Shown: in pieces, positions 45,528 through 64,000 of the stretch
How the letters are laid out: every line of letters starts with the position of its first letter
Numbering within the stretch: the first letter of the stretch is position 1
Notes under the pieces: generated by a model
What the model saw: the letters and a program-made list of their open reading frames with translations, nothing else
Told to the model about the DNA's origin: nothing
Database searches by the model: none
From: Escherichia phage ECP2303
DNA length: 64,000 nucleotides
Sequence record: PP261279.1
Reading direction: 5' to 3' (one strand)
Program-made: the position numbers and the translations under genes

Positions 45528-48500
45528 TTAACGAGAAAAGGTTGCGTAGGCTTCTAGACGATACTGCTGGTCACCAGGGAACATAACACCTATAGAGGCT
45601 GTCCCTAGAATCCTGCCTTCCCTTCCAGACTCCATTCTGAACCCTACCCATCCTGAACTCCTTGCAGCCTCGATGTTGTCGCTATACCCGAAAGTGGCAA
45701 GATCGTCAACACCAGCCCCAAACAGCAACTGAAGCTGACTTCTCGGAAGCCCTATAATTTCAGGAATATACGCACCAAAGTACACCATCTGCCCTACCTT
45801 AGGACCGCTGCCGTACTCCATCGGTTTGCTTGTAGAGAAAGTCTTCATACCAGAAGTACCTGCCGGATTAGGGTATGCCCCGTTTGTTGCTGTACCTATC
45901 CACATTCTCCACTGTGGTGCCATCTGTTTAACAGTAAAAGATGTTGAGGACGTTTTGCGGCCTGCATCATCTGTAACTACAAACTTTATGGTGACATTCC
46001 CAGTAGCTTTAAATGTTACCAGTCCTGTGGTAGCATCCACTGTTGCAATGTTGGTATTGCTACTTTCCCAAGTCTTTCTAATCCCAGATACGTTGGAAGG
46101 GGTAATAGAAGGTTCCTGCATCTGCAGTTTACCGCCCACAATCCCTATGCCGTTGCCAGGATTATACAGTGCACCAACCTCGTCTATAATGTTCCCTGCT
46201 TTGAGACTATACTTCCTTGAGAAATTGTAGGTTCCGTTATAAGTGTGTGTCCCTGAGAAGGTGACATCTGCCTTCCCGTAAGAGATGCAAACCAACGCAT
46301 ACTTCCTGTCAGGCAACGTTTCTCCAGTCTCTGGGTGAGTTTTACCTACCTGGAACACACTCGGGTCAGTAGAGTCGTGACTATCACTAACGGAGCTTGG
46401 ACCGCCCATCAACTGTGACAAACAATTCCTTACCCATGTCCAGTTATTATCGCTGGAGAAGTCCACAGTCAAATCAAACACAACCCACTCATTTGGCTTC
46501 CACACAGGTGTTGTAATGGACTTGCCTACACCACCTCCTTGGAGTGTTGCCGACTGTTCAGTGATCAGGGCCGCATAGGCCAGAGTTCCTAAACTCAGAG
46601 TCTGGCTTGCTGTCCTCACTACCTTAGAATCAGCATCTGTGAAGTTGTTGATGATTTGGAATGTGCCATAAGTGTTTTTACAGGTAATTCTGGCGTTCAG
46701 TGTGTCAATCTTCCTCACATCTGCCATAGCAGTGTTAGACACAGAGAAGTCAGAAGCTTTAGCTGAGTTTGCCGCAACAGCAGGATCAACGTTAAGAGTT
46801 GCGTTGAACTGACAAGCAGGAGTAACCAGTAGCTTGTTATCACCTATTTGCTTCCATGAAACACTTTGAACAGGGAGATTCCATTTAATACCTGAGAAAA
46901 CCTTAGCAACCCTTGGCCCCAAAGCTCCAGTCCTGTTGTCTTTACAGCACATAGACATGGTGATCGTTGACGGAGTGGCCTGACCAAATAATTGCTGTGC
47001 TTTTGCAGAGGACATAGTGTAGAAATTGTCCTTAACAAACTCATCAGCAGCTAAAGATCCATCAGCTCTCCACCACTGAACCTGATACCCTGTTTTGTCC
47101 CAACCACCGACCTGCTTCAAGTCCTCCCAGGAGATTTCCAGATCCCCGGTGGTAGGATTGATTGCAGCAGTTCCTGGTGTTCCAGATGACCATATTGGAA
47201 TATCGAACCACGCTGGTTTAACCGACTGCACTGCGCTGGGACCTATTGCGGCAGCAAGTTGCTGGCCCATCAATACGCGAGCATCTTTCACCAGACCCCA
47301 CTCAATCATAGACCCAGAGTAACCTTCTTTCTTGTAGGCTGAGGATCCGTTCAAATGGATGAGTCGGCTTGTGCCAAAGTTATGTGCTCCACCACCGTTG
47401 TCGTCTGCAAAATTGGTTATGATTCTGTCCCTGATATTTTTCCATGCCCTGCCTCCAATCTCGTAGTCATGGTCATAACATCTTTGCAGTGTTGTCCAGC
47501 AAATGATCGCCATCCTTCTACCATTGCTGAAGCCAAAGGCCTGATCGTTAAGCTCTCTCCACAAGTAGCAGTTGGTGGTCCACATGGCCCTATGAATGTT
47601 AAACCAGTTTATAGATTTGGCTGAGTTGTTCCACTGAGTCCCAGGTAATTCAGGCCATACTGCATTAACCAGCATGTCTTCTGTTCCTGCATCAACCAAG
47701 AACCCTCTCACCTTCTTACCCATGCCTACCCTATCTTTTGCAATCCAACTGCCAAACAATCTCAGTTTTGGACCGTAGACAACATCTTCCGGATGCTCAA
47801 AAGAAATATATTTTAGGTATATTGTAGGGTCACCATAGGTGCCATCACAAACAGCTTTGTGCATGTTCTCACCAAGGTCTAGACGAAGTCCTGTTACAAC
47901 TCTAGACGTGTCGGTGAATTTGTCTGTTAAATCAAACTCATACCACCACCAACCTGCACCCAACAATACTTTCTTACAACGCTGTGCATCTGTATCAGAT
48001 ATTCTCTTATCGCCTGCAAAAGGTGAGTCAGCAAACTGATAGTGCAGAGCAACCTCAAAAGGATGTGTGGATGTCCCGTTTTCTGCAAGAACTTGTTTAC
48101 CTATCAGGTCGCACTTAATGATCATCACAACACGTTTGTATCCGTTTGTTACCGGAATTTGCATGGACATGGATGTCCCATCCATGTTTGATCTCAGTGC
48201 AGTCATGATGATATAAGGGTCAACGGCATTGCCCAAAGTCTCAGGACCGGGGATTATCTTATACTTCTTGACCTGCCCCATGATGTAGTCACTTGCGTAA
48301 GTTGCCTCATTCAAGCAAGATCCTCCACCAGGTAACTCACCAGGTCCCCAGAAAAATGCGCCGTAACAGTTGTAGAACCACTTGTTAGGATCGTATTTAT
48401 TCTTGAAGGTCTGAACCTCGTTGGCCTGTTTTGTCAAGAAAACCTGCGTGTCTGTGAAGATTGCAGGGTTTACTCTCGCCTGTCTTGGAGGGTAACCTGT

Positions 48501-51164
48501 AGTTTGGTTAAACCACAAATTACAAGAGTAATCCCTCATATAGTCATAATCAGAGTATTTGTTTACATCTTCGTTCCAACACATGTTTAGGTTGGTACCG
48601 CCCATGCATACAATATATTCTGCGACATACTTATCACTTCTGGTAGGAATACCTATGAACCATCTGTTAACAGGCTCATCCCAAGCTGTGCGCTCATCTT
48701 TAACGCAGATAGCAATCCAGTCATGTGTTCCTGTTTTCTTGCACACATCTCGCTTCATACCATAGTAGAACTCTTTAGTATTCGGCTCAGGTGCATTTAT
48801 CAGGTAACTCCATGCCTGATTTGCATAAGTTCCATTGGTGCGTGGATCATGATCAAAGGCATACATGATGATCCTTTCCCCACCAAGATGTTCGCCAAGA
48901 GTAACTTTGACATTCACATCGCCGTAACCATTGCGAACAACATCCATATTGTCAATAGAGATGCCTCTGGGAGTGTAGGCAATCTTCAGCGAGTTATCCT
49001 CACTAGTGCCACCAAGTGTAATCCCTATGTTGTTTGTTGTCCCGTCGGCATATCTTACTGTGGCTTCCCAGCGTATTCCGAAATATCCTGCATCATGGCT
49101 AACAATTTTCAGTGTACGAGCACCAGAGTTAGGTTTTCCAGGATCAGGCCAAGGATTTGGATGTTCATGGACAGTCAACGATGTCCCGTTTTGCTCGTTG
49201 ACCTGCAACATTTTACCGCCTCTGCCGTTAGGGTTGAACTCCCACAAGGCTTGTGTTTTCACAATATTGTCATACGTGGTACGTCTCTGATCGTAGATCT
49301 CCTGAGTCACATCGTAGGTTACAGACCCGGCATCCATTCTATGGAGTCGTACTATATACGATGTATCGCCTTCTACAGCAGGTTGAGCTGCGTTAAGCCC
49401 GAAGTATACAGTATCGTTGACATGGAACTGTTTGTTTCTACCGACAGTATGCCACTTGCCGTTGGACGGGTACGCTGGGACGATAGTGTTCCAGTTCAAA
49501 GTCCTTGTTGTGTGGGTTCTGCCTGTGCCATGTTTGTCATGATAGGTTATTTTTACAGAGTACAGTCCACGTCTGTTAACATTTCTGTTATATTGGGTAA
49601 CAACAACTTCGTTGGCCCCGCCGTGGTTCCAGTTGGTGGAGAATTGGTAATTTGCATCTGTAACAACCGTGCCTGCAGCATTTACCAGTTCAATCTTGTC
49701 AATAATGAACGTAGCCCCCTCTGGCTGAGGCTTCAATTTCATCTTGACCGTGTCACCAATGTAAATATTGCTAACGCTGCTAACACCGTTAACTTCGAAA
49801 ATATCATCAACACCCCAACTGTCTACTGGGACATTTTTATACCAATTCTCAGGAACCTCTGTGAACCCCTGGCTATTAAGTCTGCCGCCAAACAGGTTGT
49901 TAGATCCTGCAAAACTTCCCCTTGGGATGCCTGACCACCAAAGTTTACCATTAACAACAGTAAAGGTTCCTAAGAAACCTTCTCTGTGGATGCCTTGGAA
50001 ATAAACACTCTCTGTCCAGCTAACTGGCAGGCGTTGCTCAACATATTTAGCTGTAGCAAGAGCTTGATAGTGGATAAAATTAGCCCTAGGGCTATTGTTT
50101 GCAGATTGTGCACCAATATCATTACACAAGTTGCGAGAGAATCCACGATACTGTTTAGTGCCATTATTGAAGAAAATGCCACTTGTGCCATATCCACGAG
50201 CCATTATCACCTCATGGGTGTAGGTGATATTTAAGGAACGCCATGTGTCATCTCCCCAGACGTCTTGCCCGTAGAATACGTTAACAAGCTGCTGGTCATT
50301 GGGTTTGTGCATCCTCTGTGTGGCAATTATTGCCCCGTTAGGGCCACACATAAACCCTTTCCACTCCTCATCTGCAGGAATGCCCCTCAAATCGTTACGA
50401 GTAATCTGCACAGGGGGCCAAACAAGGTCGTTTCTACTGTTATTTCTCAGAAAGTCGTATCCAGCAATCCAGAAACCCCTAGGACCACCGAAAATAACAG
50501 AATTGTCATGCACCTCGCAGTTGATGCTTGGGTTTTTCCAAGGTCCTGTTTCAGGATTTTCCGATGTCTCACCAATCTTCACAGGGGTTGCATGCTGATT
50601 TTTATCTACATGTAAAGATCCGTAGGTGTTGTTACCAGATCCATACAGGTTAAGTATGCCAGTACCTTCTGCCTCTGCAATAACCCAGACAGTGTTGTTA
50701 ATACCGCCCATCACCTCAATAAGGCGTTCTGGGTGGGTGTCAAGGTGCAATCCTTTAACAATCTGCTCTGGGAGTGGTGTCCACTCGTTTACGCAAACAT
50801 CATTACCGCCTGCAGCAGTGGATCCGATAAGACCTGCAGTGCAGCCGATGTAGAAAAACTGGTTATCAAAAGTCCGGATCACAAACGCGCGGTCTGCTCT
50901 CCACACATGATCAACATTCCAGGCTGTTTCGCTCGGATAGTTTATAGGGCTACGATCCCCAGTGCGGCACTCTCCGAACTTGTTATAGCCGGTAATATTA
51001 AGCTGACCATCATCAAAAAGTATAGCTAAGCTATTTACATAGGATACTGTGTTGCTTGTACCATCACTGTTGTCTATTGGGTATGACAGAACAGCAAGTT
51101 CCTTAATTCCACCCCTCTTATCGAGGAAATGACGACCAAGTTTTAGCAAAGGGATTGGAAGCAT
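45528..51164 (-). CDS. giant structural protein (1878 aa) with RCC1-like repeats and Big_2-like Ig domain; putative tail fibre/adhesin
   Basis: Uninterrupted 5.6-kb ORF; N-terminal Gly-rich repeats of beta-propeller type; C-terminal TWESSNTNIATVDATTGLVTFKATGNVTIKFVVTDDAGR resembles Big_2. Confidence 0.8.
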   Translation of the reverse strand: MLPIPLLKLGRHFLDKRGGIKELAVLSYPIDNSDGTSNTVSYVNSLAILFDDGQLNITGYNKFGECRTGDRSPINYPSETAWNVDHVWRADRAFVIRTFDNQFFYIGCTAGLIGSTAAGGNDVCVNEWTPLPEQIVKGLHLDTHPERLIEVMGGINNTVWVIAEAEGTGILNLYGSGNNTYGSLHVDKNQHATPVKIGETSENPETGPWKNPSINCEVHDNSVIFGGPRGFWIAGYDFLRNNSRNDLVWPPVQITRNDLRGIPADEEWKGFMCGPNGAIIATQRMHKPNDQQLVNVFYGQDVWGDDTWRSLNITYTHEVIMARGYGTSGIFFNNGTKQYRGFSRNLCNDIGAQSANNSPRANFIHYQALATAKYVEQRLPVSWTESVYFQGIHREGFLGTFTVVNGKLWWSGIPRGSFAGSNNLFGGRLNSQGFTEVPENWYKNVPVDSWGVDDIFEVNGVSSVSNIYIGDTVKMKLKPQPEGATFIIDKIELVNAAGTVVTDANYQFSTNWNHGGANEVVVTQYNRNVNRRGLYSVKITYHDKHGTGRTHTTRTLNWNTIVPAYPSNGKWHTVGRNKQFHVNDTVYFGLNAAQPAVEGDTSYIVRLHRMDAGSVTYDVTQEIYDQRRTTYDNIVKTQALWEFNPNGRGGKMLQVNEQNGTSLTVHEHPNPWPDPGKPNSGARTLKIVSHDAGYFGIRWEATVRYADGTTNNIGITLGGTSEDNSLKIAYTPRGISIDNMDVVRNGYGDVNVKVTLGEHLGGERIIMYAFDHDPRTNGTYANQAWSYLINAPEPNTKEFYYGMKRDVCKKTGTHDWIAICVKDERTAWDEPVNRWFIGIPTRSDKYVAEYIVCMGGTNLNMCWNEDVNKYSDYDYMRDYSCNLWFNQTTGYPPRQARVNPAIFTDTQVFLTKQANEVQTFKNKYDPNKWFYNCYGAFFWGPGELPGGGSCLNEATYASDYIMGQVKKYKIIPGPETLGNAVDPYIIMTALRSNMDGTSMSMQIPVTNGYKRVVMIIKCDLIGKQVLAENGTSTHPFEVALHYQFADSPFAGDKRISDTDAQRCKKVLLGAGWWWYEFDLTDKFTDTSRVVTGLRLDLGENMHKAVCDGTYGDPTIYLKYISFEHPEDVVYGPKLRLFGSWIAKDRVGMGKKVRGFLVDAGTEDMLVNAVWPELPGTQWNNSAKSINWFNIHRAMWTTNCYLWRELNDQAFGFSNGRRMAIICWTTLQRCYDHDYEIGGRAWKNIRDRIITNFADDNGGGAHNFGTSRLIHLNGSSAYKKEGYSGSMIEWGLVKDARVLMGQQLAAAIGPSAVQSVKPAWFDIPIWSSGTPGTAAINPTTGDLEISWEDLKQVGGWDKTGYQVQWWRADGSLAADEFVKDNFYTMSSAKAQQLFGQATPSTITMSMCCKDNRTGALGPRVAKVFSGIKWNLPVQSVSWKQIGDNKLLVTPACQFNATLNVDPAVAANSAKASDFSVSNTAMADVRKIDTLNARITCKNTYGTFQIINNFTDADSKVVRTASQTLSLGTLAYAALITEQSATLQGGGVGKSITTPVWKPNEWVVFDLTVDFSSDNNWTWVRNCLSQLMGGPSSVSDSHDSTDPSVFQVGKTHPETGETLPDRKYALVCISYGKADVTFSGTHTYNGTYNFSRKYSLKAGNIIDEVGALYNPGNGIGIVGGKLQMQEPSITPSNVSGIRKTWESSNTNIATVDATTGLVTFKATGNVTIKFVVTDDAGRKTSSTSFTVKQMAPQWRMWIGTATNGAYPNPAGTSGMKTFSTSKPMEYGSGPKVGQMVYFGAYIPEIIGLPRSQLQLLFGAGVDDLATFGYSDNIEAARSSGWVGFRMESGREGRILGTASIGVMFPGDQQYRLEAYATFSR

Positions 51165-53245: not shown

Positions 53246-54292
53246 TTAAGCATAAGATATAGTGATCCATTGACCGTTTACAAGTTTTTGGATAGCACCT
53301 GTCCAGTAATCACCTTGATAAGGGTGTTTATAAGCGTAGTTACCAGAGCACATCACATGTCCAGGGTAGACTCTTGACTCTCTGTAGGTGGTTTTGAAAC
53401 GGTTTGCTATCCTTACATCGTCAACCCCTCTACTGGGCATAGGGACAGTAAGGTTACCACTACCGTCTGCGCTGTTACCGTTTACCCTGCGGACCACGTT
53501 TCTTCCACCAACGGTTGCATATTGGCCTCTAACGGTTTCATCGTTACAATCAACTCTTCCACCTATTTGAGCGCTTCCGCAGGATTGTTGTCCGTTAACA
53601 GTGGCTCTTGGTATCGTGACCGCATTGGCATTTGCAGAGGAACTTTTTGCATCGTTGCATTCAAGATTTCCTTGGATAGCCAGTCTTGCACGGTTGGCAG
53701 TTATAGCATTGAGCTTCATAGCCGAAAACACAGGCTGCCCACCAGAAGGTTGAAATCTCCAACGGAACCCGTCTATTTGGTGAGAAGGATCATCAAGGTC
53801 TGTGCCGTCAGCACCACCGATGTTGTCCATAATCCAGAAATCCATCGTCGTCTTGTCTGGCGTTATGGTGGTATATATTGCCGCACTGTCTGTTGACGCA
53901 GATGCAAACTCGATTCTTTGGAGACCTAAAGTTTGAGTCTGAGTCATTATGTCTCCAGACTTGTCAACATATAGATCGTCCATTTCTTCAGGTGAGTATA
54001 CATTGAGAACTTGACGTGCAGCAGCTTTGTCTGGAACGTCTGCTAGATTATTAGTGACCCTTAAGAATCTATTATCCCATCCTGGGACAACATCTTCTGT
54101 TAAATGCTTCAACCACGCAGAAAGCATGTGAAGTTCAAAGTTAACAACTTCACATGCCATTCTTTGTGTCATATCCCAACCTTTCAATCTCTCTTCTTTT
54201 TTTGGTTGAGACTTATTCAACTCTCCCGTATTTTCAAGCACAACATCCTGATTGGCCCAAATATCAAGAGGGATAACTGGTTTAGTCATCAC
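53246..54292 (-). CDS. tail fibre protein, paralog 2
   Basis: 348 aa; shares PL(D/E)IWA N-terminus and LQKLVNGQWIT(I/V)(S/N)YA C-terminus with 55304..56344. Confidence 0.7.
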   Translation of the reverse strand: MMTKPVIPLDIWANQDVVLENTGELNKSQPKKEERLKGWDMTQRMACEVVNFELHMLSAWLKHLTEDVVPGWDNRFLRVTNNLADVPDKAAARQVLNVYSPEEMDDLYVDKSGDIMTQTQTLGLQRIEFASASTDSAAIYTTITPDKTTMDFWIMDNIGGADGTDLDDPSHQIDGFRWRFQPSGGQPVFSAMKLNAITANRARLAIQGNLECNDAKSSSANANAVTIPRATVNGQQSCGSAQIGGRVDCNDETVRGQYATVGGRNVVRRVNGNSADGSGNLTVPMPSRGVDDVRIANRFKTTYRESRVYPGHVMCSGNYAYKHPYQGDYWTGAIQKLVNGQWITISYA

Positions 54293-54704: not shown

Positions 54705-55289
54705 TTAGAGGGTAGGTCGCTCCGGGAAGAAAATGTCAGGGGCTTTAGATGTATCTATTTCAAGAAGTTTTACCCTGTACATTTTCAAATCTCTGATGTT
54801 ACGTTTCTGGTCATCAGTAAGATCATATTCAAGGTCAATCATGTCTTGATAGGCACCAATTCTAGCAGTAGCCCAAGCAAGTTCTGTCTCTATGACACCC
54901 TCTGCCTGTTGAACAAAGAATTCATTGTCTGTGACAAATTCATCACCAACTAAACGCAAAGCGTCGTGGTGAAGCATAATGTTTTCTGGTACCTCTTCTT
55001 TTTTGGCGATAACCACACGAAGACCTGGAGCAGGCCATAAGGCATCAGGTTCTTCTGTAGATGTCTTAAGAATTCCCTTCTCGTCAACAAGTAGGAAGAT
55101 ACAACCTGGATTTTCTTGTCGCAATGTTCGTGACTGCACATACCAATCGCCATCATCATTACGTAAAAAATACCCAGTGTATGCGGTGTAATCCTCAACC
55201 TCTTGAGGGGTCAGCTCCTTGGTTTCCTTGTTGGCGTGGTATTCGCCAGATCCCGGTTGGTAAAGTTTAAACTCTTGAAGTATTTTCAT
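54705..55289 (-). CDS. tfa: tail fibre assembly chaperone (lambda Tfa-like)
   Basis: C-terminus RDLKMYRVKLLEIDTSKAPDIFFPERP matches the recalled lambda Tfa C-terminus [27 protein letters not shown]; follows a tail-fibre gene. Confidence 0.8.
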   Translation of the reverse strand: MKILQEFKLYQPGSGEYHANKETKELTPQEVEDYTAYTGYFLRNDDGDWYVQSRTLRQENPGCIFLLVDEKGILKTSTEEPDALWPAPGLRVVIAKKEEVPENIMLHHDALRLVGDEFVTDNEFFVQQAEGVIETELAWATARIGAYQDMIDLEYDLTDDQKRNIRDLKMYRVKLLEIDTSKAPDIFFPERPTL

Positions 55290-55303: not shown

Positions 55304-56344
55304 CTATGCATAATTAACAGTGATCCATTGACCGTTTACAAGTTTTTGTAAAGGTCCTGCCCAGTAAGTTGAACCACGCATCTCTTTTTTGTCACCGAAA
55401 TGCCAGCCTGTGACAACGTAGCCGTTGCGGATTGGAGATTCAGAAACGCCGTCCACAAGTCTTGCACCGATTCTGATGTCTTGCACACCTGTCTGCGGGA
55501 TAGTGATCGTTACATCACCGTTACCGTTAGCCGTCACTCCGTTCACAGAGCGAACCACATTTCTGTTACCGACAACACAGTGCTGGCTTCTTACAACCAT
55601 ACTGTCACAACTTGCACCACCATTAACATATACTGACCCAGCCGTCAATTGACTAGCCACATTGCAGTTGGTGAATGTTGCTGTATTACTGATAGTAAGG
55701 TTATTACACCTCATGTTATCGACAACTTCAACATTGCCTACCACTTTCAACAGCGCACGGTTAGCCGTGATCGCGTTAAGGTACATCAAAGTGAACTCTG
55801 GATTAATATCCGGCTGAGTTGGCTGGAATCTCCAACGAAACGCATCTACTGTAGATGTACCGCCATCATCAAACGACCCGGTATTATCACTTAACCCAAA
55901 GTCGAGAGTTGTCTTATCTGGGCCAATAGTCGTCTCTATCCAAGCCTTATCTGTCTCGGCAGCTTTAAAGTTGATACGTTGCAAACCCAAGGGGCCTGTC
56001 ATTGTATCACCTGTAACTTTTACATACCTGGCGTCTGCCTCTTCCTTGGTAATAATCCCAAGGTTTCTACGGGCAACAGGGATGTTCAAAAGATCACTCA
56101 AGTTATTATCACGTACCAGATAACGGCCTTCTTGAGCGGGGATCTGCTCGTCAGCAATATATTTTGCCCAAGTTCCGAGCATATTGAAAATATAGTTAAG
56201 TTCTTCACATGAGGGCTTTTGACCAAGATCCCAACCTTTTCTCCACAAATCATCAATCGGGCGTAGCCTGTTCTGTCTGTGGGTGTTAGGCAGAACCTGA
56301 TCCTCCTCTGCCCAAATCTCTAATGGAAAACTAGGTTTTGACAT
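55304..56344 (-). CDS. tail fibre protein, paralog 1
   Basis: 346 aa; conserved termini shared with 53246..54292; followed by tfa. Confidence 0.7.
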   Translation of the reverse strand: MSKPSFPLEIWAEEDQVLPNTHRQNRLRPIDDLWRKGWDLGQKPSCEELNYIFNMLGTWAKYIADEQIPAQEGRYLVRDNNLSDLLNIPVARRNLGIITKEEADARYVKVTGDTMTGPLGLQRINFKAAETDKAWIETTIGPDKTTLDFGLSDNTGSFDDGGTSTVDAFRWRFQPTQPDINPEFTLMYLNAITANRALLKVVGNVEVVDNMRCNNLTISNTATFTNCNVASQLTAGSVYVNGGASCDSMVVRSQHCVVGNRNVVRSVNGVTANGNGDVTITIPQTGVQDIRIGARLVDGVSESPIRNGYVVTGWHFGDKKEMRGSTYWAGPLQKLVNGQWITVNYA

Positions 56345-56356
56345 TTTATCTCCTGA

Positions 56357-58429
56357 TTATGAGAAGTCTGGCGGGACAACATCTTCTACATACCCTTTCA
56401 GAGCAACCTGCCCCATATGAAGCACGGTAGAATCTCTAGCGGTAACAGTGATGCTGTCAGACATTACTTGCGGGTATGCCCACACATACTGTTTTACCTC
56501 AGGGTATCTATACTCTATAGTTGCCATGTTTCCGCAAATACATCTCCATAAAAATTCTTGGTAATTCCTAGTTGGGTCATAGCCATATACCGGAGCAAGC
56601 TCTTTACTAGGAACGAACCCTGCAAGGTATTGTATTTCAGACGGTTGCCAACCTAACCTAACGATAGGTATGTTTACAGACTCTTTTGCCTTTTCAATAC
56701 CTCCCTGCATCACCCAATCGTAGCACTCGGTGCAGAAGAAATCAAGAGCACCTGCTTCCTTTTTATATTGGTCAGCAAGGTTCAGCTTTTGTGTAAGCTC
56801 GGTTTCCATAATGGTTGGGAAAAACAGCAAAGCTGTCATCTGAGCTGATGCAGCGTGTGCCTTTACTGCCTTTGAAATAGCCGCAATACGAGCGCCAAGC
56901 TTACCACGACAAAATGCCACATACTTGTCGTAAACACCGCCAGTTTTAGGATCGTCAATAGTCCCAATATCTAATGCATACTCACCTGTCTCATCATAAA
57001 ACGCCTGCTTTGTAGGGTAATCATAAATACAAGGCCTACGAGTATCGGTATTGTACCACCACCACGGTTCACCAACCTGCATAATCACTGGCAGGTTGTT
57101 TCTCATAGCGGCTGATGCAAAATTCTTAAATACTGCAGTAAGGAAATTCATACCCTCTTCAATGGTTGGAGATAGGAGGTAGCTACAAGGTGTATACCCT
57201 GTTTTAGCGTAGTTATCGTTCCAGTCTCTTTGGGTCCATTCCAACGGGCAGGCATCGCTGAAAAGCTCAAAACTTACAGATTGCATAACGTCGAAGTTAT
57301 GTCGTTTGGCATTGTACATAAAATCATCATGCCATTTATAAGCTGCAGCGTTTAGCGCTCCTGTTCTGTTTATAGACCATTGGGTTCCGGACCATGTGTA
57401 GTCATAATAATGACTCATACCAACATAATGGTTTATGGTTCCGGTATATCCCAGACGCTTGATATTGTTCAACACCCTTAAAGGAGAGACGTTCCACATA
57501 TCGTCATATGCGGTGCAGATCCCAACGTCGTGCTCTCTCACCTGAATATTATTAAGTTGCATCATTTTCCAGCCTGTGTCTGGCTGAAGCAAATCTAGGC
57601 GCAACTCACACTCTACATTTTCCGTTCTCGGGTCTGTGCTATTACTTACCCAGTCTTTAGGCATGAGTGGTATTAAAATCCTTCTCACCTGCCGAGGATC
57701 AACACCCATCATGTTGTTGTTCTGGTCCATCCCGACGCAGTCCTCGAAATCAATATGAATTTCTGCAACATTCTTATCCTCTGAGATGCTGACAGCATAT
57801 TGAGCTAAAGGAACATAGATGATTGTGCCATCAACAAGGTCTACAGTCATAATCATCTTTTCAGGAGTGGAGAAGTTGCTGGCGTTGGTTATTGACATTC
57901 TGAACCAAAGTTTGGTGTTTCTCATCTCATAGTGATCATCAAACCCAATACCGAAATGGTCATACTTGTCAACTGTTTCCCAAATGCATCCAGCCATACC
58001 CCCATATGTTCTTGACACTAAACGGTTAATACAACAGTTGTTATCTGCAACAATACAGGTACTTTCAGTCTGCTGAGTAGTTGTAACCCAATATCTTGGG
58101 TGGAACATTCTCTCCTCGACAGTATCCCAAGATATCCTGTCAAGATTCTCATCTGAAACTATTGTACATTTCGCCCTTTGTGTCCCGATCATCACCCCTT
58201 GAGATTTTGATGAAAACTCCATAAAGAAGCTTCTTGGCAACCTGTTGGGTAATTTGTCAACAATTTCCACCGGAATCTCAATACTGGTTGCCCCGACTGG
58301 GATAGTTACATCGCCCTCAACATGATCATAATCCCTACCAGGAACGGCAGTATCCTGAACTGTGCGGTAATGAAACTGCGCAGCCATTGTAGAGTAATCA
58401 CGGTAAGGTTTAAAAACAGCTGTTGCCAT
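56357..58429 (-). CDS. tail/baseplate-associated protein (690 aa)
   Basis: Long ORF within the tail module; no catalytic motif recognised. Confidence 0.65.
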   Translation of the reverse strand: MATAVFKPYRDYSTMAAQFHYRTVQDTAVPGRDYDHVEGDVTIPVGATSIEIPVEIVDKLPNRLPRSFFMEFSSKSQGVMIGTQRAKCTIVSDENLDRISWDTVEERMFHPRYWVTTTQQTESTCIVADNNCCINRLVSRTYGGMAGCIWETVDKYDHFGIGFDDHYEMRNTKLWFRMSITNASNFSTPEKMIMTVDLVDGTIIYVPLAQYAVSISEDKNVAEIHIDFEDCVGMDQNNNMMGVDPRQVRRILIPLMPKDWVSNSTDPRTENVECELRLDLLQPDTGWKMMQLNNIQVREHDVGICTAYDDMWNVSPLRVLNNIKRLGYTGTINHYVGMSHYYDYTWSGTQWSINRTGALNAAAYKWHDDFMYNAKRHNFDVMQSVSFELFSDACPLEWTQRDWNDNYAKTGYTPCSYLLSPTIEEGMNFLTAVFKNFASAAMRNNLPVIMQVGEPWWWYNTDTRRPCIYDYPTKQAFYDETGEYALDIGTIDDPKTGGVYDKYVAFCRGKLGARIAAISKAVKAHAASAQMTALLFFPTIMETELTQKLNLADQYKKEAGALDFFCTECYDWVMQGGIEKAKESVNIPIVRLGWQPSEIQYLAGFVPSKELAPVYGYDPTRNYQEFLWRCICGNMATIEYRYPEVKQYVWAYPQVMSDSITVTARDSTVLHMGQVALKGYVEDVVPPDFS

Positions 58430-60722: not shown

Positions 60723-63700
60723 TTAGTCGTGAGACTCGTTCCAAGGTCCTTGGAAACTAGAGTTAGAACGGCTTACCACAACAGTAGGACAGGATATTGC
60801 GACCCCTGTTACAGAAGACGTTGACCATGGTGTGTAGATTTCAACAACAATATCTATGGTTTGTTCACCAAGACCCGTTATCCCTACTGCACACATACCG
60901 TTGTTGTCGTTTCCGTACTTCTTACCTGCAAGGATTTGATGTCCGGCTATCCAAACGTTAAGCTGGGAGCCAGACAAGGTTCCGTTTAGTTTAAAGAAGA
61001 ATGTTACGTTCTTACCTTGTCCTGAAACGTTGTCCACATATCTCCACCTCCAACGGCAAACCCTCTGCTGTGAGTTATATACTGGAGGACAGTCACCGTA
61101 GGTTCTGTGTGCAACTATTGCACCTTCGAACTGGTTAGCACGGATAACAGAAGCTTCTACACGCCCACGAAAGGTACCTCCGGTTGCATCTATGGTGCCC
61201 CTAAAGCTACCATTATTGGCATAAACATCCCCACGGAAGGTACCACTAGTGGCGTTAACTGCCCCTGTGAAGTTACCAGAACTGGCGTTGATGTTGCCTT
61301 TCACCCACACATCCATAAATTGGGCGTGCCCGTTCTTGTTAATATACCAACCGTATTTATGGTACCCGTTGCCATCGTAGTTGTTTGACGAAATTTCTTG
61401 TGCGATCTTGGCAGATGAAATCGTCCCGTTCTCTATAAAAGCATCTTTCAAGAACGCTTGGTTGTTCTTGATTGCGAAAGCAAGGGTTGCTGTTCCATTT
61501 CCAGGGTTGTATACCGCAAAATTGTTTGCACTAACCATGAAGTAGGATTGAACTTGGCCTCCAGACCCTTCCATCCCCAACTGGATACCTGCAACATATT
61601 TATTCCCTGCGGAGTCTACCTGTATTTTTGTGCCCCATTGAGCATTTACTTTACCCTCTAAGTCGGTTACAGCCTTAGATGTTGTAGCTACTGCAGCCCT
61701 GATCTCGGACACATCCCCAACATCATCAATGATCTCCTGCTTAGCAACAGCAAGTTCTTGACGAATAGCTGACGCTGTGCCGTTGATAAGGTCCACAGTA
61801 GCTTTGTTGGTATCGGAAATTGTAGCATCCAGCGCTGTTTTTGTGGAAGTCAGTTTTCCATCCAAAGCATCAATCGCCTGCTTGTTGGTAGAAATCTCCC
61901 CACGTGCAGAAGTTATCTGCTCTGACAGTGCAGATGTTTTCTGATTCAACAAGTCAGTGGTGGCCTTGTTGGTATTGGCAATCAAGGTGTTGAGGTCAGT
62001 TTTTGCGGTGGTTATCTTGCCATCCAGGGTGGTATAGTTTTTAGATACCGTCGCGTTTGTCTGACTGATCTTTTGATCCAGAGTTTCAGATGTCCTGTTC
62101 AAAAGATCCACAGTTGCCTGGTTAGTGCTCAAGATGCTTGCGTCAAGTTCTGTTCTCTGAGTATTGATCTTACCATCCAGAGTTTTATCTCCGGCTAAAT
62201 ACCCGCTCTCAACTCCCTCTATCTGCTCTACCAGCTCACCTTTGGCGGCAACCAATTTCTCATCTAAAGCCTCTGTCTTTTTGTTCAGAAGATCAGTAGT
62301 TGCTTTATTGGTTGTCTCGATCAGAGATGCCAGTCTGCCACTTTCAGTGTTCAGATCGTTGGTGAATTTGTTCTGTGCAGCAACAAGTTTCCTATCCAGC
62401 GCTGTAATGTTACCATTGACATCTTCAAACTTCTGAGTTGTTTCTGTAACTACCGCACCTATTCTGTCCCCAAGTTGTTGGAACGCTTCATCTACCCTAC
62501 CATCCATGTACCTGTTAAGTTCTGTGACACGATTTTCAACCTCTTCAATAGAGGAATCCAAAGTGCTCATCAACTCTTTATAAGTTTCTGTCTTTTTGAA
62601 TTCAGCATCTATCTGAGGCATCAAATCCTCAATAGAGGTATAGCAGCGTGCAGCGCATTCTACAAACTGAGAGCTACCAAAAGCGTTTGTGGTTCGAATA
62701 TACCAATAATAAACCTTATCGTTCTGCAGACCTTCAGATGTCCAAGTCGAACCAACACCCATACGGGTGGCTTCTGAAGTAACGGTTGCATCACTAGTGT
62801 CTGGCAACCTTGTCATACCAGATGTCCAAAAGTCATACTGGGTGCTTACACTTGCTAAATCCCTGCTGTGTGGAATCAAGGTGATAGCAAAGTATCCTTG
62901 CTTAACCTCTACAGAAACAGGAGCTTCAGGTGCCTGAATGTTAAACTCGCAGTACGCTTCTGGAGATACACCACCTTTATAAGATGTTGCAACCACGGTT
63001 GCTGTGTATGACCCTTTGGTCAAGCCTTCTACTCTGACAAACTGCTCAACTGTCTGTGCTGTCCAAACAATCTCTCCGTTCTTTCTTACCTGCACAATAT
63101 TTTGAGCGTAAGTTCCAACGTTGTCCCAAGCCAAAACACCGTGAGTTACTTCCCCAGCTTGGAGAACGGAGTATCTGAAGTTTTGCGGTTGAGCTACACC
63201 GGATGGGGATATCGGAATATCTACATCGCCGGAATCCGGAAGTTGCCCTGTGGCATCATTCCACTCTTTAGCATCTTGACGAAGTTTTACCTTGACACCG
63301 CCCTTTTTGGTGAACTCCCATTCAAGAACCCTCATTTCTTGGCCCACTATACCAATACTTGGGAGATTCATTGTAACGTAACGGCCAGGTTTAAATTTAA
63401 AACCTCGCATATTGCAGGTGACTTCAATAATCCTGCCAGCTCTAGCACGTCTTAAAAATATTGCAGAAACACGCTGAGCTTGATAAGGGCTGGTAACAAA
63501 GCGGTAGTCTATATCGATTATCTTTCTTTCTCCATCCTTCTCTATCCACTCTGGGACAAACACTGATGGAAAATCTGTTTCAGAATACCCTTTGGTCGGA
63601 CTGGTGAATCTGCCAGTTATTGTGTTGGATCTTTTGTCAAACGAGGCTTCCGGATAGATCTTAACCTCACCACAGACACAGTCCTCACTCAGTGTCATTG

Positions 63701-64000
63701 TTGCCGGACCATAATATGCACCTACCAGCAGTCCATACTTACCAGCTACATAGCTGAGATCTGCACCACAAGCTTTCAGCATTTCTGCCATAATACTTGC
63801 TGGGGCCTCATCCATATCGAACTCGCCATTAATGGTGTAACGGCGCTCACTAGTTCCGTCCGCGTTTCTTACCGCCTCATCGCATATGTTAGCAGCCTCC
63901 TTGAAGGACTCCCAGTTGATGGTTTCGTCAGGACATTTAAGGTACGTTCTTAAATAGTCTAGAATCACCAAGGCCGCGTTATTGGTATACACCTCTTTAC
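60723..64000 (-). CDS. host-specificity/tail-tip protein, lambda J-like, 5'-truncated by the window edge
   Basis: Segments KYVAGIQLGMEGS, FMVSANNFAVYNPGNG, GYFAITLIPH and YYWYIRTTNAFGSS parallel recalled lambda gpJ (KHYVAGIGLSMED, FLVAANRIAFIDPANG, GYFQITATPH, YYFYIRSVNTVGKS); no upstream stop within the window. Confidence 0.75.
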   Translation of the reverse strand, partial: KEVYTNNAALVILDYLRTYLKCPDETINWESFKEAANICDEAVRNADGTSERRYTINGEFDMDEAPASIMAEMLKACGADLSYVAGKYGLLVGAYYGPATMTLSEDCVCGEVKIYPEASFDKRSNTITGRFTSPTKGYSETDFPSVFVPEWIEKDGERKIIDIDYRFVTSPYQAQRVSAIFLRRARAGRIIEVTCNMRGFKFKPGRYVTMNLPSIGIVGQEMRVLEWEFTKKGGVKVKLRQDAKEWNDATGQLPDSGDVDIPISPSGVAQPQNFRYSVLQAGEVTHGVLAWDNVGTYAQNIVQVRKNGEIVWTAQTVEQFVRVEGLTKGSYTATVVATSYKGGVSPEAYCEFNIQAPEAPVSVEVKQGYFAITLIPHSRDLASVSTQYDFWTSGMTRLPDTSDATVTSEATRMGVGSTWTSEGLQNDKVYYWYIRTTNAFGSSQFVECAARCYTSIEDLMPQIDAEFKKTETYKELMSTLDSSIEEVENRVTELNRYMDGRVDEAFQQLGDRIGAVVTETTQKFEDVNGNITALDRKLVAAQNKFTNDLNTESGRLASLIETTNKATTDLLNKKTEALDEKLVAAKGELVEQIEGVESGYLAGDKTLDGKINTQRTELDASILSTNQATVDLLNRTSETLDQKISQTNATVSKNYTTLDGKITTAKTDLNTLIANTNKATTDLLNQKTSALSEQITSARGEISTNKQAIDALDGKLTSTKTALDATISDTNKATVDLINGTASAIRQELAVAKQEIIDDVGDVSEIRAAVATTSKAVTDLEGKVNAQWGTKIQVDSAGNKYVAGIQLGMEGSGGQVQSYFMVSANNFAVYNPGNGTATLAFAIKNNQAFLKDAFIENGTISSAKIAQEISSNNYDGNGYHKYGWYINKNGHAQFMDVWVKGNINASSGNFTGAVNATSGTFRGDVYANNGSFRGTIDATGGTFRGRVEASVIRANQFEGAIVAHRTYGDCPPVYNSQQRVCRWRWRYVDNVSGQGKNVTFFFKLNGTLSGSQLNVWIAGHQILAGKKYGNDNNGMCAVGITGLGEQTIDIVVEIYTPWSTSSVTGVAISCPTVVVSRSNSSFQGPWNESHD

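Follow-up and report, generated by a model that had tools for sequence, protein, structure and literature searches.

A long, repeat-built shaft predicted in the J-like fibre protein of rV5-like phages

The gene at the right end of a 64,000-nucleotide stretch of the genome of Escherichia phage ECP2303 (PP261279.1; the whole stretch is referred to as the window) encodes a protein related to the central fibre protein J of phage lambda. Between two fibronectin type III (FNIII) domains and a tail-tip domain, this J-like protein contains a predicted alpha-helical shaft of about 347 residues, which is built of diverged repeats and differs in length among the rV5-like phages (Vequintavirus). The shaft probably forms a trimeric helical rod within a lambda-J-type central fibre, and it may, with less certainty, act as a passive spacer that sets the length of the fibre. 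A shaft of this kind is ordinary for the J family. It is also the sole hypervariable cassette of a virion protein that is otherwise 97-99% conserved and hardly varies among the more than 100 records of rV5-like phages.

The open reading frame (ORF) covers 60723..63992 on the minus strand and remains open past the end of the window. Escherichia phage ECP2309 (PP464953.1), a 137-kb rV5-like Vequintavirus with a contractile tail, matches the window with 100% identity. The full-length J-like protein consists of 1279 residues, of which the C-terminal 1091 codons and the stop codon are located inside the window and the N-terminus beyond its end. Unless stated otherwise, the residue numbers used here are those of the window protein; full-length numbers are obtained by adding 188. 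The rV5 ortholog, gp37, has been found in virions by mass spectrometry (PMC3606486).

Domain layout and position of the shaft

The profile searches bore out the original prediction, made from the letters of the window and its ORF translations, that the gene encodes a J-like protein. The match to PHROG 31, 'central tail fiber J', spanned residues 1-947 (E = 1e-142), and matches were obtained to the Pfam families Ig_J, Ig_J_second and Phage_Tail_Tip. As in proteins of the lambda J type, the N-terminal hub domains are homologous to J, with 55% identity of the hub region to a siphovirus J, and Ig_J_second, the helical prediction and Phage_Tail_Tip follow in this order. The Ig_J match was below the Pfam cut-off (Table 1), and the region of this domain aligns with lambda J, starting at J residue 666.

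Lambda J consists of hub domains, FNIII-1, FNIII-2, a shaft of alpha-helices (residues 809-861, a three-helix bundle), a beta-prism and a receptor-binding domain (PMC11101478). The protein studied here shares this order, with homology on both sides of the shaft. Overall identity to lambda J was 25% across 458 aligned residues; residues 309-483 corresponded to J 666-838 and residues 770-928 to J 845-991, and about 286 residues between these flanks had no counterpart in lambda J. To judge from the alignments, the helical segment occupies the site of the lambda J alpha-helical shaft, much lengthened, and is not a foreign insertion. The original prediction had placed a repeat insertion of ~350 residues, absent from lambda J, at 61500-62650, which corresponds to residues 450-833. 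Its length agrees with the predicted helical stretch, of which about 220-270 residues are clearly repeated, and most of the segment is indeed unmatched in lambda J, but the term insertion was wrong since lambda has a short shaft at this site. Lambda J also differs in having no internal repeats. The G-x-F-x-G repeats and distal domain at the C-terminus, presumably the receptor-binding end, are 97-98% conserved across the four Vequintavirus alleles that were compared.

Table 1. Coordinates of the J-like fibre gene and of features in its product
Feature	Residues	Position	Strand	Basis
J-like central-fibre gene, ortholog of rV5 gp37		60723..64000	-	ORF list and translation, PHROG 31, identity to ECP2309 coding sequence WXX18339.1
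FNIII/Ig-like domain 1, Pfam Ig_J	305-357	62928..63086	-	partial match, E = 1.9e-5, 25.2 bits, below Pfam cut-off of 29
FNIII/Ig-like domain 2, Pfam Ig_J_second	359-464	62607..62924	-	E = 1.5e-30
Predicted alpha-helical shaft (~347 residues)	442-788	61635..62675	-	helices in AlphaFold2 single-sequence model, period 3.63, F2-pyocin alignment
Repeat unit U1, NKATTDLLN at 564	553-607	62178..62342	-	motif scan, unit alignment
Gly-rich acidic helix break GVESGYLAGDKTL (candidate hinge or kink)	595-607	62178..62216	-	break at model residues 243-248, allele alignment
Repeat unit U2 (51 residues), DGKIN at 608, NQATVDLLN at 626	608-658	62025..62177	-	U2-U3 score 106, z = 12.5
105 codons deleted in O157 typing phage 14 (exactly two units)	628-732	61803..62117	-	protein and DNA alignment
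Repeat unit U3 (54 residues), DGKIT at 659, NKATTDLLN at 677	659-712	61863..62024	-	U3-U4 score 109, z = 15.2
Repeat unit U4, DGKLT at 713, NKATVDLIN at 731	713-769	61692..61862	-	motifs, unit alignment, periodicity
Phage_Tail_Tip, beta-prism 'central straight fibre' after the shaft	769-909	61272..61694	-	PF09327, E = 1e-38
G-x-F-x-G repeats and distal domain, C-terminal	910-1091	60726..61271	-	translation, allele alignment

Structural information is available for this part of the fibre in F-type pyocins. Residues 683-890 aligned with the F2-pyocin fibre (PDB 25vf, E = 4.7e-16), and residues 683-785 correspond to its residues 985-1079, inside the solved three-stranded shaft. From residue 985 up to the tail-tip domain, the F2-pyocin fibre is a three-stranded coiled coil described as 'exceptionally long' (PMC13455828, PMC12874032). 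The central fibres of the F-type pyocins (PyoF10; F2, F7) resemble the J-like protein in belonging to the J family and in carrying a shaft immediately ahead of the prism. The pyocin shaft is long, helical and three-stranded, and it has a Gly kink, to which a Gly-rich break in the shaft studied here may correspond. The pyocin fibres differ in that the pyocin particle is non-contractile and the coil is 163 residues long, Ala-rich and patterned as SxSxxMxxLxS, whereas the shaft in the J-like protein is about 347 residues long, rich in Thr and Asn and built of repeats of 44-62 residues.

We examined shaft length across the J family using the distance from the end of FNIII-2 to the start of the tail-tip domain, here called the spacer. 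When 1.8 billion cluster representatives were searched exhaustively, 3979 relatives were obtained at E <= 1e-10; the best 150 of these were surveyed together with lambda J and the J protein of phage RCIP0359, and both flanking domains were located in 54 proteins. Spacer lengths in these 54 J-family proteins ranged from 19 to 2476 residues with a median of 385, as compared to about 40 residues in lambda J and 320 in the protein studied here. Long spacers are the norm in the J family, with lambda at the short extreme and the protein of the window being typical. The 16 spacers that were inspected contain little Pro and resemble coiled coils, and repeats are apparent by eye in several of the longer ones. 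A word-indexed homolog search returned only proteins with at least 99% identity, nearly all of them 1279 residues long, and gave no diversity; this came from the exhaustive representative search and from tblastn searches against phage records. Long helical shafts in J fibres are already common in the databases and have been described structurally since 2026.

The J proteins of RCIP0359 and of the T1-like phages, Queuovirinae and Webervirus are the closest relatives outside Vequintavirus. Identity to the RCIP0359 protein is 55-56% for the hub, 66% for the FNIII domains and 75% for the tail-tip domain, but its spacer is only about 104 residues long and contains no NKATTDLLN repeats. According to the original prediction, its claim would fail if the region were a standard part of J-family proteins without internal repeats. 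The alignments bear out one half of this statement, the region being a standard part of the family, yet internal repeats are present all the same.

Repeat units and length alleles

The shaft contains four to five diverged repeats of 51-62 residues each. The repeat motifs named in the original prediction were recovered: KATTDLLN(K/Q)KT(E/S)AL(D/S)E(K/Q) is present at residues 565 and 678, a looser form, N(K/Q)AT(T/V)DL(L/I)N, in each of the units U1-U4, and the DGKI(T/N)-type motif as DGK(I/L) at the start of U2, U3 and U4 (Table 1). Pairwise Smith-Waterman scores among U1-U4 were 70-109, as compared to 26-31 +/- 5 for shuffled sequences of the same composition (z = 9-15; 0 of 300 shuffles scored as high), and a degenerate unit upstream yielded z values of 4.7-6.6 against U4 and U1. 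A plain self-BLASTP of the shaft returned the identity match only, and Smith-Waterman alignments with shuffles were used instead.

The self-comparison suggested by the original prediction thus revealed repeats in the protein and none in the DNA. Neither Tandem Repeats Finder nor a seed-based repeat search identified relevant tandem or long direct repeats in the gene, and the DNA of the units, when aligned in register, was only 51-61% identical with exact matches of at most 10 nucleotides. The lack of repeats at the DNA level and the low identity of the units indicate that the duplications are old and visible in the protein alone; a recent duplication of units is ruled out by the repeat searches and the short exact matches. 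On the opposite strand of the shaft region there are three ORFs of 67-100 codons (61458-61661, 62164-62436 and 62475-62777, plus strand) with no annotated counterpart in ECP2309, which we attribute to the biased codon usage within the repeats.

Four length alleles were observed in Vequintavirus, for which the counts refer to database records including RefSeq/GenBank duplicates. The reference allele of rV5 and ECP2309 (1279 residues, four motif copies) was present in about 57 records, and an allele of 1199 residues with three motif copies, represented by 'C14', LL12 and FFH2, in 43 records. The shaft of the latter is 54% identical to the reference and 80 residues shorter; the C14-type protein shows 97-99% identity in every region outside the shaft, which is a divergent cassette. 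The BP9 allele (1381 residues, 13 records) has gained 14 residues and two 44-residue units. An allele of 1174 residues, found in the single record of O157 typing phage 14, arose by an exact deletion of 105 residues, apart from which the protein is 99% identical to that of ECP2309 throughout. This deletion joins the NQ/ATVDL site to the NK/ATVDL site at an 8-nucleotide microhomology, ACTGTGGA. The alleles thus differ by whole units between flanks that are 97-99% identical, as expected for a repeat shaft of variable copy number.

Comparisons of the DNA of the shaft (61635-62675) and its flanks with other Vequintavirus genomes (L005, L007 and L003) showed 92-100% identity in the flanks and 47-81% over the shaft. 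The boundaries were sharp, at full-length residues of about 661-691 and 931-961. This sudden drop in identity points to exchange of the cassette by recombination rather than to gradual drift.

If fully extended, the shafts of the 1174-, 1199-, 1279- and 1381-residue alleles would measure about 36, 40, 51 and 66 nm, respectively. They represent a natural allelic series in which fibre reach can be probed against adsorption, in a phage group that is used in biocontrol and therapy. In the searchable open-access literature we came across no account of the shaft or of its alleles for rV5-like phages, nor of copy-number alleles, the 11-residue periodicity described below or the contractile-tail setting. 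About 18 GenBank records (MG0656xx) titled 'Campylobacter phage', several of which are marked UNVERIFIED, are rV5-like coliphage genomes with 92-97% identity to the fibre gene of the window; their host label is probably wrong.

Predicted structure and possible function of the shaft

Helices in the AlphaFold2 (AF2) single-sequence model covered model residues 88-434, which correspond to residues 442-788, with three short breaks. The confidence of the model was too low for a fold search and the secondary structure alone was taken from it. In each of the four alleles, the hydrophobic period had its peak at 3.63-3.64 (z values of up to 10.7 at 3.6), whereas the power at the heptad period of 3.5 was at background in the shaft (z = -0.7). 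In an alignment of 13 units, hydrophobic columns were found at positions i and i+4, recurring every 11 residues, and the 44-residue units of phage BP9 equal four times 11. A heptad-like pattern was confined to the two ends (full-length residues 633-655 and 919-950), the distal part of U4 (residues 731-787) being heptad-like. The best period of 3.63 and the background power at 3.5 rule out a canonical left-handed heptad coiled coil, so the coiled coil of the original prediction stands as a helical and repeat-built structure but not as one of the canonical heptad type.

We favour a scenario in which an alpha-helical shaft of the lambda J type would have been lengthened about six-fold through duplication of units of 44-62 residues. 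Three chains would most likely pack as a parallel three-helix rod, presumably over the whole length. With a hydrophobic seam recurring at 11-residue intervals (period about 3.63), the rod would run almost straight instead of supercoiling like a classical heptad coil. It would reach about 50 nm when fully extended, with one or two Gly-containing breaks as possible hinges, and may serve to hold the FNIII/hub part at a distance from the beta-prism and the distal binding domain. Gain, loss or exchange of units would alter the reach of the fibre and leave both ends untouched.

Parallel trimeric helical rods with 11-residue or mixed periodicities, a polar core of Asn and Thr and a length set by repeat number, resembling the rod proposed for the shaft, occur in the stalks of trimeric autotransporter adhesins, in the P22 gp26 tail needle and in T4 fibritin. 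The shaft also gave weak matches to trimeric coiled coils such as P22 gp26 (E = 4e-4). These proteins share no homology with the J-like protein beyond the coiled-coil character and differ from it in their flanking domains and biological context. Among the breaks in the AF2 helices, one falls within the Gly-rich stretch SGYLAGD, and the acidic break GVESGYLAGDKTL is a candidate hinge or kink on the basis of the model. This break is kept in the alleles of 1279 and 1381 residues and missing from the 1199-residue allele; by analogy, it may be compared to the Gly955 kink of the F2-pyocin shaft (PMC13455828).

In micrographs of rV5, thin fibres with a length of about 70 nm are visible, five to six in number (PMC3606486). 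Subtracting the 8-nm shaft from the FNIII-to-tip distance of 29.7 nm in lambda and adding about 51 nm yields about 73 nm, close to the observed length, which we consider to be a suggestive coincidence only.

Several observations weigh against an extended, stable rod. The AF2 model is monomeric, based on a single sequence and of low confidence (mean pLDDT 48; helices 55-73). The composition of the shaft is unusual for a stable coiled coil, with 14% Thr, 6.5% Asn and 5% Gly, and the stability of the helix may be no more than marginal. At the Gly breaks, the rod could also fold back on itself rather than extend.

A different role for the shaft is suggested by the F7 pyocin, in which the 163-residue coil at this position is converted into a beta-prism on receptor binding and drives ejection of the tape measure (PMC12874032). 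The shaft could, by the same principle, be a metastable spring: on receptor binding, the adjoining prism would seed the refolding of the three-helix rod into a short beta-prism of triangular shape, so that the fibre shortens and the particle is pulled to the cell surface. We consider this unlikely. The shaft belongs to the same family and is located directly N-terminal to the Phage_Tail_Tip prism, as in the pyocin; similar switches have been predicted for 21 of 24 siphophage fibres (PMC12874032) and residues 841-861 of lambda J turn from a helix into strands (PMC11101478). Thr, Val and Ile are abundant in the shaft, whose 11-residue period equals the length of the SxSxxMxxLxS strand pattern of the pyocin. 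This pattern, however, was not enriched across the shaft, with 7 matches as compared to 4.9 +/- 2.2 in shuffled sequences (p = 0.23), whereas the same test on a 107-residue fragment of the F2-pyocin shaft yielded 6 matches versus 1.9 (p = 0.009). The 'small' positions of the pattern are 68% Ala in the pyocin, as opposed to 10% Ala in the shaft. The sheath of a contractile tail already supplies energy, and the free exchange and deletion of units in nature fits a passive spacer better than a finely tuned switch. Five of the seven pattern matches are located in the last 55 residues, within the distal part of U4 and adjoining the prism. A local switch near the prism, as in lambda 841-861, is plausible, while a switch of the whole shaft is less likely.

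The shaft might instead serve mainly as a docking rail, with other Vequintavirus fibre proteins attached at its kinks to give a branched fibre, an idea to which we assign a low probability. It is modelled on the F2 and F7 pyocins, in which three side-fibre trimers are attached to the shaft where it has an acidic kink with Gly (PMC13455828, PMC12874032), and an acidic Gly-rich break, EQIEGVESGYLAGDKTLDGK at residues 590-609, coincides with a helix break in the AF2 model. Many Vequintavirus fibre proteins are also without assigned attachment sites (PMC8594841). The analogy is nevertheless the sole basis of the idea, the repeats contain no recurring acidic patch, and the explanation is weakened because the kink segment is absent from the 1199-residue allele with its 43 phage records. 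Finally, the apparent repeats could be a by-product of a biased low-complexity composition, with no specific structure. The shaft is indeed biased toward Thr, Leu, Ala, Asp, Glu and Lys, and the sub-threshold Pfam matches of the J-like protein to the unrelated coiled-coil families Apolipoprotein and SF-assemblin show that composition feeds the scores. However, shuffles that preserve composition still left z values of 9-15 for the units and of up to 10.7 for the periodicity, motif order is kept within the units, and natural deletions and insertions respect the unit boundaries. With these shuffle controls and unit-bounded alleles, a compositional artefact is excluded for practical purposes.

Genomic context and neighbouring genes

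In the source genome, three genes just past the right end of the window precede the J gene and encode a Dit-like protein (phrog_1302), a tail protein assigned to phrog_2048 and a DUF6950 protein. Together with the J gene (60723-64000 in the window) they form a complete tail-tip module of the siphovirus type (L001, 9871-15278), with distal-tail and hub partner genes as alongside J genes of the lambda type, and the four genes are colinear with a module in RCIP0359, at identities of 32% (Dit-like), 40% (phrog_2048), 44% (DUF6950) and 55% (J). In the 59.5-kb genome of RCIP0359, which we take to be a siphovirus, partly on the basis of gene order, the module is located after the tape measure gene. 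In the rV5-like genomes it is not found downstream of a tape measure gene, the position expected for the tip of a non-contractile tail, but between the fibre gene gp41 and the wedge gene gp36.

The morphology of rV5 includes a contractile tail (PMC3606486), and baseplate hub, central spike and wedge genes are annotated separately in Vequintavirus. Lambda J, in contrast, closes the tip of a non-contractile tail. The proposal that the repeats form a fibre-like shaft extending the tail tip is therefore doubtful in its second part, since this contractile phage has hub and spike genes of its own, while a shaft is the best reading of the repeats. We detected no homologs of gp37-gp40 within positions 80-130 kb of the related myovirus phi92; its syntenic site, gp143-gp144-gp145, has no J module and the wedge gene is conserved. 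Fibre assignment in the Vequintavirinae was described as 'far from clear' in the BASEL paper, and one fibre was left unassigned in the 2026 structure of phi92. Our literature searches turned up no virion structure for an rV5-type Vequintavirus.

The presence of a hub-forming J protein, together with its partner genes, in a phage with a contractile tail poses a concrete structural problem. Vequintaviruses might have captured a complete siphovirus tip module as a peripheral baseplate fibre, in which the shaft would act as a 'winch' that is switched from helix to prism by receptor binding, becomes tens of nanometres shorter and pulls the baseplate across the glycan layer, with the repeat-number alleles setting the reach. 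This combination is improbable as a whole. The shaft region has been known since early 2026 as a force-generating fold switch in F-type pyocins, and its retention by a contractile phage is a question that can be tested.

No tRNA or tmRNA genes were found across the window. Other fibre-related genes are located on the minus strand to the left of the J-like gene. The product of 56357-58429 (690 residues) has both the N-terminal domain and the TIM barrel that characterise the 'non-contractile tail sheath protein' of the phage N4 gp65 type (PF23845, E = 1e-80; PF23844, E = 8e-13), and a Calx-beta match fell slightly short of the Pfam cut-off. This protein is the glycan-deacetylase fibre known from rV5-like phages (PMC8594841). 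Two genes for proteins of 348 and 346 residues (53246-54292 and 55304-56344) flank a Caudo_TAP fibre-assembly chaperone gene (54705-55289, minus strand). Neither protein has a Pfam match; they are annotated as short tail fibre proteins in a related genome and are paralogs according to the literature. In the 1878-residue fibre protein encoded by 45528-51164, a Big_2 Ig-like domain near the C-terminus is the single recognisable domain, and an annotation elsewhere names the product a lateral tail fibre bearing an intimin domain.

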